NCBI GenBank assembly: GCA_005223125.1
Contig: NJBH01000019.1
Span: 1 to 64,000 of the forward strand
Length of the DNA stretch: 64,000 nucleotides
From: Promethearchaeota archaeon Loki_b32
GTDB taxonomy: Archaea > Asgardarchaeota > Lokiarchaeia > Sigyniarchaeales > SOKP01
Reading direction: 5' to 3'
Part shown: positions 4,037-4,365 of the stretch, in pieces
Numbering within the stretch: position 1 is the stretch's first letter
How the letters are laid out: every line of letters begins with the position of its first letter
Notes under the pieces: generated by a model
What the model was told of the DNA's origin: nothing
What the model saw: the letters and a program-made list of their open reading frames with translations, nothing else
The model's database searches: none
Made by a program: the position numbers and the translations under genes

Positions 4037-4365
4037 GAGTTGATCTCGAAAAAATCGTGAGAGAGTTAAACTCATTTGTGAAATTCTGCCCTTAATTTTT
4101 ACATGAGTATTTTATTCGTGTAATACAACCATGTAGGATCTCTTGAAACCTATTTTAAAACCTCGATTGCTTGGGCTAAGTGATTGTCTGTTCTTAAATG
4201 TCAAGAGATCCTCCTCCTTTTTATCTTGTTTTTTGGTTTTTAGTGTTTTTTGCCCTCTACACCTCATTAATAGTTACCTTTAGATCGTGATAGAAATTTG
4301 TTGTAGTTTAAATATTGTCATCTAAATAAAATGATAGTTTTAAAAAAACTAAGCCCAAGCATCGG
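4037..4365 (+). ncRNA. Putative structured leader RNA / ncRNA (or ssDNA origin) upstream of the AEP operon
   Basis: Helices 4037-4041/4069-4073, 4100-4105/4130-4135 and a 12-bp perfect 4135-4146/4201-4212; loop 4168-4177 perfectly complementary to 4352-4361; TATA-like TTTAAATA at 3977-3984. Confidence 0.5.

Follow-up and report, generated by a model that had tools for sequence, protein, structure and literature searches.

Upstream of a primase-polymerase operon in an Asgard archaeon there is most likely a gene for a noncoding RNA of ca. 215 nt, which we predict from sequence comparison to be a base-pairing RNA that switches translation of the operon off. The locus lies in a window of 64,000 nt (the whole stretch of DNA that was analyzed). 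Two of its features, the closing stem of a large hairpin (H3) and a pairing between the loop of that hairpin and the start region of the first gene, were both found to be kept by compensatory change in 17 Asgard (Promethearchaeota) loci. A first-pass annotation of the window had proposed pairing of a hairpin loop with the translation start region, together with a regulatory role for this pairing, and the comparison supports it on both points. We lean, if not heavily, toward a model in which a separate predicted RNA of ca. 215 nt would pair with a short 5′ untranslated region (UTR), acting in trans or, by way of read-through, in cis too, and thereby block translation of a coupled operon. Asgard archaea are the closest known prokaryotic relatives that eukaryotes have, and as far as we know their regulatory RNAs are almost unexplored.

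The operon and its products

The intergenic gap of 435 nt (3934-4368) is located 5′ of three tightly packed genes on the + strand: p239 (4369-5088), p778 (5090-7426) and p222 (7417-8085). The start of p778 lies 1 nt past the p239 stop, and the last 10 nt of p778 are shared with p222. Relatives of p778 were recovered exclusively from Asgard metagenome-assembled genomes (labeled Promethearchaeota or Promethearchaeia, with a few Thor- or Odinarchaeota), and the window, whose G+C content is 32%, is therefore archaeal DNA. Because the host is archaeal, bacterial promoter and terminator rules do not apply, and a scan for bacterial promoters and terminators is uninformative here.

By its motifs and its modeled fold, p778 is a member of the AEP primase-polymerase superfamily. 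The AEP domain (residues ca. 200 to 540) is accompanied by extra N- and C-terminal helical domains, and motif I (DxD; D305/D307), motif II (sGxGxH; S349-G350..G353-H355) and motif III (D456) are invariant in 28 sequences of the p778 family. In the structure model, which is of high confidence (pLDDT 85.5), residues ca. 200 to 540 superpose on the LigD polymerase domain and Prim-PolC (VIA Z 18-19) and on PriS (Z 12-14); for the LigD polymerase domain the values were Z 18.8 and an rmsd of 3.1 over 249 residues (Foldseek E 2e-4). The Pfam family DNA_primase_S matched p778 below threshold only, and no Walker A motif was seen by eye in the family consensus. That p778 might be a reverse transcriptase was also considered and is ruled out by the AEP fold and motifs.

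The 222-aa product of p222 carries conserved DxE, SDYE and HNxNC motifs, which suggests a putative DEDD/RNase H-like exonuclease; its family was seen solely in Asgard metagenome-assembled genomes, and it gave no PDB profile match and no Pfam domain. The 239-aa product of p239 consists of an N-terminal beta-sandwich domain, a K-rich linker and a C-terminal helical domain. It belongs to no known family, and its structure model matched generic beta-sandwiches only. For all three proteins, PDB profile searches returned nothing significant and there was no above-threshold Pfam, PADLOC, NCBIfam or PHROG assignment; an ESM Atlas feature search gave no result, PADLOC reported no retron or DRT match at the locus, and relatives of p778 were absent from the viral contigs searched.

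A candidate RNA gene in the gap

For comparison we used the 400 to 460 nt located 5′ of the p239 start in 16 nonredundant loci, to which two more (L053 and L054) were added later. Every locus that we recovered, whether from a genome or a metagenome, has p239, p778 and p222 in synteny, and the upstream regions share a common layout: a BRE/TATA block, a variable 5′ part, a G-rich/C-rich stem of the H3 type, a pyrimidine tract with T-runs, a spacer of ca. 90 nt, a second BRE/TATA block, a short leader and the ATG.

In the window, the first of these blocks is the + strand promoter P1 (3949-3984), composed of an upstream element (AAATTTCTAAT-N4-CAAACTT), a BRE-like CGTAC and a TATA box (3977-3984); it is kept in position and sequence at every locus that carries the RNA. 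The second, P2 (4303-4314, + strand), combines a BRE-like GTAG with a TATA box at 4307-4314 and lies ca. 30 nt before the target of the pairing described below. Nowhere from H3 to the ATG is conservation higher than in the P2 columns, and every locus has this promoter at −60 to −77. P1 and P2 have one and the same TATA box (TTTAAATA), in each case behind a similar BRE-like block, and the two boxes are among the best-conserved columns of the region. In standard archaeal promoter geometry the TATA box is centered near −26/−27, which would place the RNA start at ca. 4006-4008 and the mRNA start at ca. 4337, the latter giving a predicted 5′ UTR of ca. 30 to 47 nt across loci.

The predicted noncoding RNA (4007-4251, + strand) would be ca. 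215 nt long if it ended at the first T-run and ca. 245 nt if it ended at the last. The oligo-T tract (4218-4251, + strand) comprises four runs of T5 to T6 (4218-4222, 4229-4234, 4237-4241 and 4246-4251) and resembles an archaeal terminator, so that termination probably occurs there. In 14 of 15 loci, H3 is followed, at −170 to −123, by runs of T5 or more (up to T8); runs of A5 or more are almost never found at these positions, and locus L018 has no T5 run 3′ of H3. Conserved in position, a BRE/TATA of its own ca. 30 nt before the predicted start and an oligo-T tract at the end are what would be expected of an archaeal small RNA (sRNA) gene. Between the T-tract and P2, the clade-A loci also share a pyrimidine-rich motif on the + strand (4253-4265), which reads CCCTCTACACCTC in the window and TCCTACTC in relatives.

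No conserved open reading frame (ORF) was found in the RNA region on either strand, small ORFs included. A micro-ORF starting from a GGAG-ATG/TTG motif was rejected by eye: its start codon and its length (6 to 31 codons) are not conserved, and its nucleotides are. The Rfam search suggested by the first-pass annotation matched no family: with Rfam 15 there was no match at gathering thresholds in the window, and permissive settings produced two chance-level matches (E > 5) in 3800-4500. A tRNA/tmRNA scan found none, and the literature that we searched contained no description of this RNA or module.

Two side observations concern the 5′ part of the gene. An SD-like purine motif (GGAGTTGATC, of the form GGAG-N-TGATC) lies at 4036-4045, inside the H1 region and near the RNA 5′ end; it is kept in the nearest clade, and other loci have GGAG-rich variants. 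GGAG-N-TGATC complements the usual 3′ end of archaeal 16S rRNA almost fully and thus resembles a strong Shine-Dalgarno (SD) sequence, yet there is no conserved ORF behind it. Separately, the 36-nt P1 upstream element plus TATA box has a sole other copy in the genome, at G000:C6:1165-1200 (locus L002, minus strand; AAATTTCTAAT-N4-CAAACTTTCGNACTTTAAATA). The ca. 450 nt located 3′ of that copy look G+C rich by eye, contain no long ORF and match nothing in Rfam; this stretch may represent a further relic of the locus or else a second RNA gene on the same promoter.

Hairpins of the RNA

All of the sequence elements quoted in the first-pass annotation, which described three consecutive hairpins (H1 to H3), were found in place, and the three hairpins fared differently on comparison. 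Folding of the whole region was modestly better than that of shuffles on the + strand (z −2.2) and no better on the − strand (z −0.7). When RNAalifold was applied to a MAFFT alignment of eight divergent loci, it returned no structure as a result of misalignment, and an alignment of five loci was used instead.

H1 (4037-4073, + strand; pairs 4037-4041/4069-4073 plus 4044-4047/4061-4064) is present both in the minimum free energy (MFE) structure and in the RNAalifold consensus, and its sequence is kept in the nearest clade. However, its pairs are either invariant or broken, so that it draws no compensatory support, and it is missing in distant loci. The outer stem proposed for H2 (TACATG/CATGTA) is not conserved even in a relative with 86% identity; a shorter hairpin of 10 pairs (4099-4123, + strand; 4099-4108 with 4114-4123) is supported in its place, 5 of the 10 pairs having changed on both sides among the five close loci.

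H3 (4135-4212, + strand) is the conserved element. Its closing stem of 12 bp (4135-4146/4201-4212), described as perfect in the first-pass annotation, is real: none of 200 dinucleotide shuffles of the 435-nt gap reached 12 bp. The stem encloses a 54-nt interior with an inner hairpin. On a MAFFT alignment that had not been fitted to the structure, both partners have changed in 7 of the 12 pairs, not one of 500 shuffles attained the covariation score, and this score was best at slide 0. Moreover, cognate arms pair with a mean energy of −21.9 kcal/mol, versus −15.1 kcal/mol for noncognate arms. Just 5′ of the 3′ arm, the sequence TTCTTAA (4193-4199) is invariant, in the form TTCTT(A/G)A across loci.

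The repeat AAACCT does occur twice in the loop (4146-4151 and 4158-4163), as had been pointed out, but it is not conserved; the idea of a template with realignment ends, which rests on this repeat, is not favored. A broader form of that idea deserves mention, namely, that the RNA serves p778, p222 or p239 as a scaffold, primer, template or guide and that its match to the leader is a secondary autoregulation. There is precedent in crRNA-like RNAs, which can make Cas proteins repress their own promoters. The length of the RNA (ca. 215 nt), its invariant motifs outside the pairing and its strict linkage to a polymerase gene and a nuclease-like gene speak for such a role, as does the occurrence in retron and DRT systems of a structured RNA just 5′ of a polymerase gene. 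On the other hand, L018 does without H1 and H2, the AAACCT repeat that would be the "template" is not kept, the RNA is absent from two operons (see below), and p778 is an AEP enzyme and not a reverse transcriptase. Taken together, we regard an RNA cofactor of this kind as improbable.

Loop-target pairing

The first-pass annotation had identified 4168-4177 as perfectly complementary to 4352-4361. We confirmed this, and with one bulge the pairing extends to 17 bp (4162-4182 with 4347-4366). The anti-target (4162-4182, + strand) comprises the 5′ arm and apical loop of the H3 inner hairpin. The target (4347-4366, + strand) lies in the predicted 32-nt 5′ UTR and reaches the SD-like GGA (4364-4366), 3 nt before the start codon; in the duplex the SD-like purines are covered, and pairing extends as far as −3 to −1 relative to the AUG. 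The window duplex has an energy of −25.7 kcal/mol, compared with −12.0 ± 2.8 kcal/mol for shuffled loops (z −4.9; 0 of 1,000).

In each locus there is such complementarity inside H3, of 14 to 27 nt, ending 1 to 10 nt before the ATG, and the sequences involved are unrelated from one locus to the next (AGCCCAAGCA in the window; TTGCCGAGTACA, TTGCCACAACAAA, GGCTAAGAATC, ACCCGCGAC and others elsewhere). Compared without any alignment, cognate loop and target pair with a mean energy of −25.3 kcal/mol and noncognate combinations with −12.5 ± 3.3 kcal/mol; the cognate partner ranks best in 15 of 16 rows and 15 of 16 columns of the matrix. The anti-target is displayed identically in 16 of 16 loci folded, where it takes up the 5′ arm of the inner hairpin together with its apical loop, and this is the way in which antisense RNAs present a kissing loop. 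Loop and target did not evolve faster than their flanks overall, and there is therefore no sign of selection for new specificities. With ca. 10 natural compensatory sets, this sRNA-mRNA pair is directly testable by a reporter in which loop and target are swapped.

Covariation of inverted repeats is neutral with regard to strand, and counts of G·U pairs do not settle the strand either (23 versus 15; P = 0.48). The RNA strand was accordingly assigned by the orientation of the promoter and terminator motifs and by the orientation that the region shares with the genes. The same neutrality would also suit an element that acts as DNA, whether through single-stranded hairpins (an origin or priming signal, as the first-pass annotation had suggested) or by bounding a promoter segment that can be inverted; P2 does sit between both repeats, and the adjoining enzyme is a primase-polymerase. 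We nevertheless consider a DNA-level element very unlikely. The region has a single orientation in 19 of 19 loci and in all model matches, no linked recombinase gene was present among the neighbors scanned (an invertible promoter was rejected on these two grounds), and the repeats differ from locus to locus, unlike the sites of site-specific recombinases. The loci lie in contigs of 55 to 199 kb with no replicon hallmarks except a ParB_N gene in some, and a DNA element or a single-stranded priming signal would leave unexplained the nested-overlapping layout, the promoters, the terminator-like T-runs and the fact that the target lies at the start codon.

One transcript or two

In the first-pass annotation, the pairing was read as a long-range pseudoknot within one leader, as in the IncI-type plasmids. 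The BRE/TATA at 4303-4314 and the T-runs at 4218-4251 both lie between the partners, however, and such a single-leader pseudoknot is not favored. The core target lies 3′ of the start predicted from P2 in every locus. That start (ca. 4337 in the window) is motif predicted and falls past 4212, the position downstream of which, according to the first-pass annotation, a transcription start would count against its model; the outcome comes close to that. Given P2 and the T-runs between the partners, and the existence of loci with P2 only, the pairing is more likely to occur between two transcripts than as a pseudoknot in one.

The P2-only loci are L051 and L028, in which P2, a target-like leader and the operon are kept with no RNA gene upstream; the best loop/target energies there (−9.2 kcal/mol in L051 and −16.0 kcal/mol in L028) are at the background level. 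These two loci indicate that P2 is sufficient and that the RNA is a separate unit. The converse arrangement occurs in genome G016 (L058; G016:C11:26506-26730), where an orphan RNA gene is intact, with promoter and T-tract, in a genome without the operon; no cognate target for it was found elsewhere above the control level. Together, the P2-only loci and the orphan RNA favor a separable RNA gene that would act on the P2 transcript, and read-through from P1 may also occur.

Such read-through is the basis of the strongest rival reading, which we rank above an RNA cofactor of the AEP enzyme and above a hairpin or inversion site acting as DNA, in that order. Here a long P1 transcript would form a leader whose H3 loop pairs with its own start region, in the manner of IncI or of a riboswitch that sequesters the ribosome-binding site (RBS), and P2 would be a second, unregulated promoter. 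Loop and target are on the same strand in a fixed order at a spacing of ca. 185 to 200 nt in all loci, the MFE structure of the whole 346-nt region includes the long-range helix, and L018 has no T5 run; in addition, archaeal termination at oligo-T is often leaky. Weighing against it are the conserved BRE/TATA and the several T-runs that separate the partners, the persistence of the operon on P2 alone in L051 and L028, and the intact orphan RNA gene of G016. There is also a topological argument: a long leader without a nearby free end would find a full duplex in the closed H3 loop hard to form. A duplex of 17 to 27 bp within a loop closed by 12 bp would need a free end, and presumably the P2 transcript alone has one. 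All told, we think a cis-acting leader unlikely, though the least so of the three rivals.

Proposed mechanism

In the two-transcript model that we prefer, P1 (TATA box, 3977-3984) would drive an RNA of ca. 215 to 245 nt that ends in the oligo-T tract past H3, its conserved core, and the inner hairpin of H3 would expose 17 to 27 nt on its 5′ arm and apical loop. P2 (TATA box, 4307-4314) would drive the p239-p778-p222 mRNA with a 5′ UTR of ca. 30 to 47 nt. The displayed loop would touch the single-stranded 5′ UTR first, and the duplex would then spread over the SD-like purines to within 1 to 3 nt of the AUG; as the target is ca. 10 to 20 nt from the predicted 5′ end of the mRNA, that free end could thread through the closed H3 loop to allow a full duplex. 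Ribosome loading on p239 would be blocked, and the block would be relayed to the AEP polymerase and the exonuclease-like protein by translational coupling (1-nt gap, 10-nt overlap). Since the duplex covers the SD up to the AUG, repression is predicted here, as opposed to the activation brought about by the IncI pseudoknot. As for the physiological trigger, we infer that the operon would be made only when the level of the RNA drops, as with an RNA antitoxin or a copy number sensor. Such tight posttranscriptional control suggests that the products of the module are costly or only conditionally needed. It should be added that a simple antisense regulator could be shorter than this RNA and that invariant motifs are present in it (TTCTTAA and the GGAG-rich 5′ part), both of which hint at a further role.

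Comparison with known systems

In the IncI-alpha, IncB and IncL/M plasmids, rep expression is controlled by the repZ/repA pseudoknot and an inhibitory Inc RNA or RNAI (Asano and Mizobuchi 1998, cited in PMC10724649). In these systems, a hairpin loop pairs beside the RBS of a replication-type gene ca. 100 to 200 nt downstream, whose translation is coupled to that of an upstream ORF, and loop-loop RNA contacts are decisive; the partners reside on one mRNA, a pseudoknot of 7 to 8 bp activates, and the inhibitor is an antisense RNA from the opposite strand. Our locus shares the complementarity of a loop to a site next to the RBS (4162-4182 with 4347-4366, covarying in 17 loci). It differs in that a promoter and a T-tract lie between the partners, in that the duplex (14 to 27 bp) runs over the SD to the AUG, in that no antisense gene is evident, and in its host, which is an Asgard archaeon and not a bacterial plasmid. 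Whereas the IncI-type pairing lies beside the SD without occluding it, here the SD-like purines lie inside the duplexes, which end at −1 to −10.

A second comparison is with the kissing-loop antisense RNAs that control copy number, CopA/CopT of R1 and RNA I/RNA II of ColE1 (references in PMC10724649). The likeness is that the recognition sequence sits in a hairpin loop and extends along one arm, with a target over the start of a leader ORF that is coupled to rep. Those RNAs are cis-antisense, with complementarity that arises automatically, whereas here the RNA comes from the same strand upstream and nothing marks the locus as a replicon. The pRN1 paper that we examined for a precedent of an antisense RNA mentions none.

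The type I toxin-antitoxin pairs of E. coli (tisB/istR-1, shoB/ohsC and zor/orz) offer a third comparison. In these, an sRNA adjoins its target, has ca. 18 to 21 nt of complementarity to the 5′ UTR and represses translation; the complementarity is maintained by selection and does not derive from gene overlap, the sRNA is divergent, and the toxins are hydrophobic and smaller than 60 aa. A neighboring sRNA with ca. 20 nt of complementarity to the 5′ UTR of its target is likewise present here. Unlike those pairs, however, our genes are in tandem, and the first product is a soluble protein of 239 aa followed by a polymerase, with no conserved small ORF and no hydrophobic toxin of less than 60 aa.

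Archaeal sRNAs are known to mask the RBS, e.g., sRNA162 of Methanosarcina mazei, and the RNA described here would resemble them as an archaeal sRNA that has its own promoter and pairs with a 5′ UTR or RBS. It is set apart by its Asgard lineage, the lack of any Rfam relation, the fixed tandem of regulator and target and a specificity that differs from locus to locus. Lastly, with the msr-msd RNA of retrons and with DRT2/DRT9 it has in common a structured RNA of ca. 200 nt directly 5′ of a polymerase gene and the patchy distribution of an accessory module. In those systems, though, the downstream gene encodes a reverse transcriptase and the RNA is its template or primer; p778 is an AEP enzyme, and all that has been demonstrated for the RNA is that it matches the operon start. 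The locus thus lacks defining features of IncI control, of copy number RNAs and of type I antitoxins and is best filed as a new variant of the RBS-masking RNAs, in an Asgard family absent from Rfam.

Distribution and genomic context

A covariance model (R1) was built from the five close loci and run on 54 genomes of the genus, in 9 of which it found homologues of the RNA. Besides the orphan gene in G016, these included a decayed locus in genome G007 (L060/L071; G007:C125), where p239 is interrupted by a stop, p778 is absent and p222 is reduced to its C-terminal part, and six truncated relics of the RNA gene without the operon (L061, L062, L063, L064, L065 and L066), which lie in five further genomes and have differing break points. 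RNA homologues without an operon point to frequent loss and decay of the module. p778 itself was found in only 5 of 24 other sampled genomes of the genus.

The neighbors also differ by locus. Several loci have an NYN RNase gene directly upstream; in the window the neighbors include NYN, nucleotidyltransferase and Macro-TIR genes. Patchy distribution with variable neighbors is the pattern of an accessory module, such as a defense system or an integrated element. The analysis flags a module, found only in Asgard genomes, whose three products are a helicase-less AEP polymerase, a protein resembling exonucleases and the 239-aa protein and which is patchy and often decaying. One speculative possibility, to which we give only a small chance, is that the RNA and the three proteins form an Asgard-specific accessory system, either for defense (abortive infection) or of a mobile element, in which the RNA would be a labile "antitoxin" or sensor or else a guide or primer of the AEP enzyme. 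If so, the RNA would restrain an AEP polymerase and an exonuclease-like effector, and the loop/target code would set which RNA is paired with which module.

Several observations on the surroundings may be added. In L017 (2310-2816) and L018 (2106-2669), the NYN/LabA-like RNase gene is the immediate upstream neighbor and is encoded on the same strand, and the copy in the window (1275-1787) is 2.2 kb upstream. In L053, a divergent gene for RNase III (215-1048, minus strand; Ribonuclease_3 plus dsRBD) is located upstream of the RNA gene. Either type of RNase could process the RNA or the RNA-mRNA duplex. On the other side, the genes 3′ of p222 (p129 and p397; window 8275-9850) recur in some loci; p397 matches PHROG 21315 (unknown function), and counterparts of p129/p397 contain a ParB_N domain in L015 (8270-9601) and L053 (6607-7328). 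These genes and their ParB_N counterparts may hint at an origin in a mobile element.

The Macro-TIR-like gene of the window (3253-3933; 226 aa) is cut by a deletion of 411 nt (junction at 3922/3923) relative to L022 (922-1332) and L023, two metagenome contigs of 96 to 99% identity whose TIR part is intact, with its end ca. 60 nt before P1. We had considered this truncation as the border of an inserted element and rejected that reading in favor of a lineage deletion of the 411 nt. Downstream of the module, 13181-31201 of the window is occupied by a single ORF of 6,006 codons.
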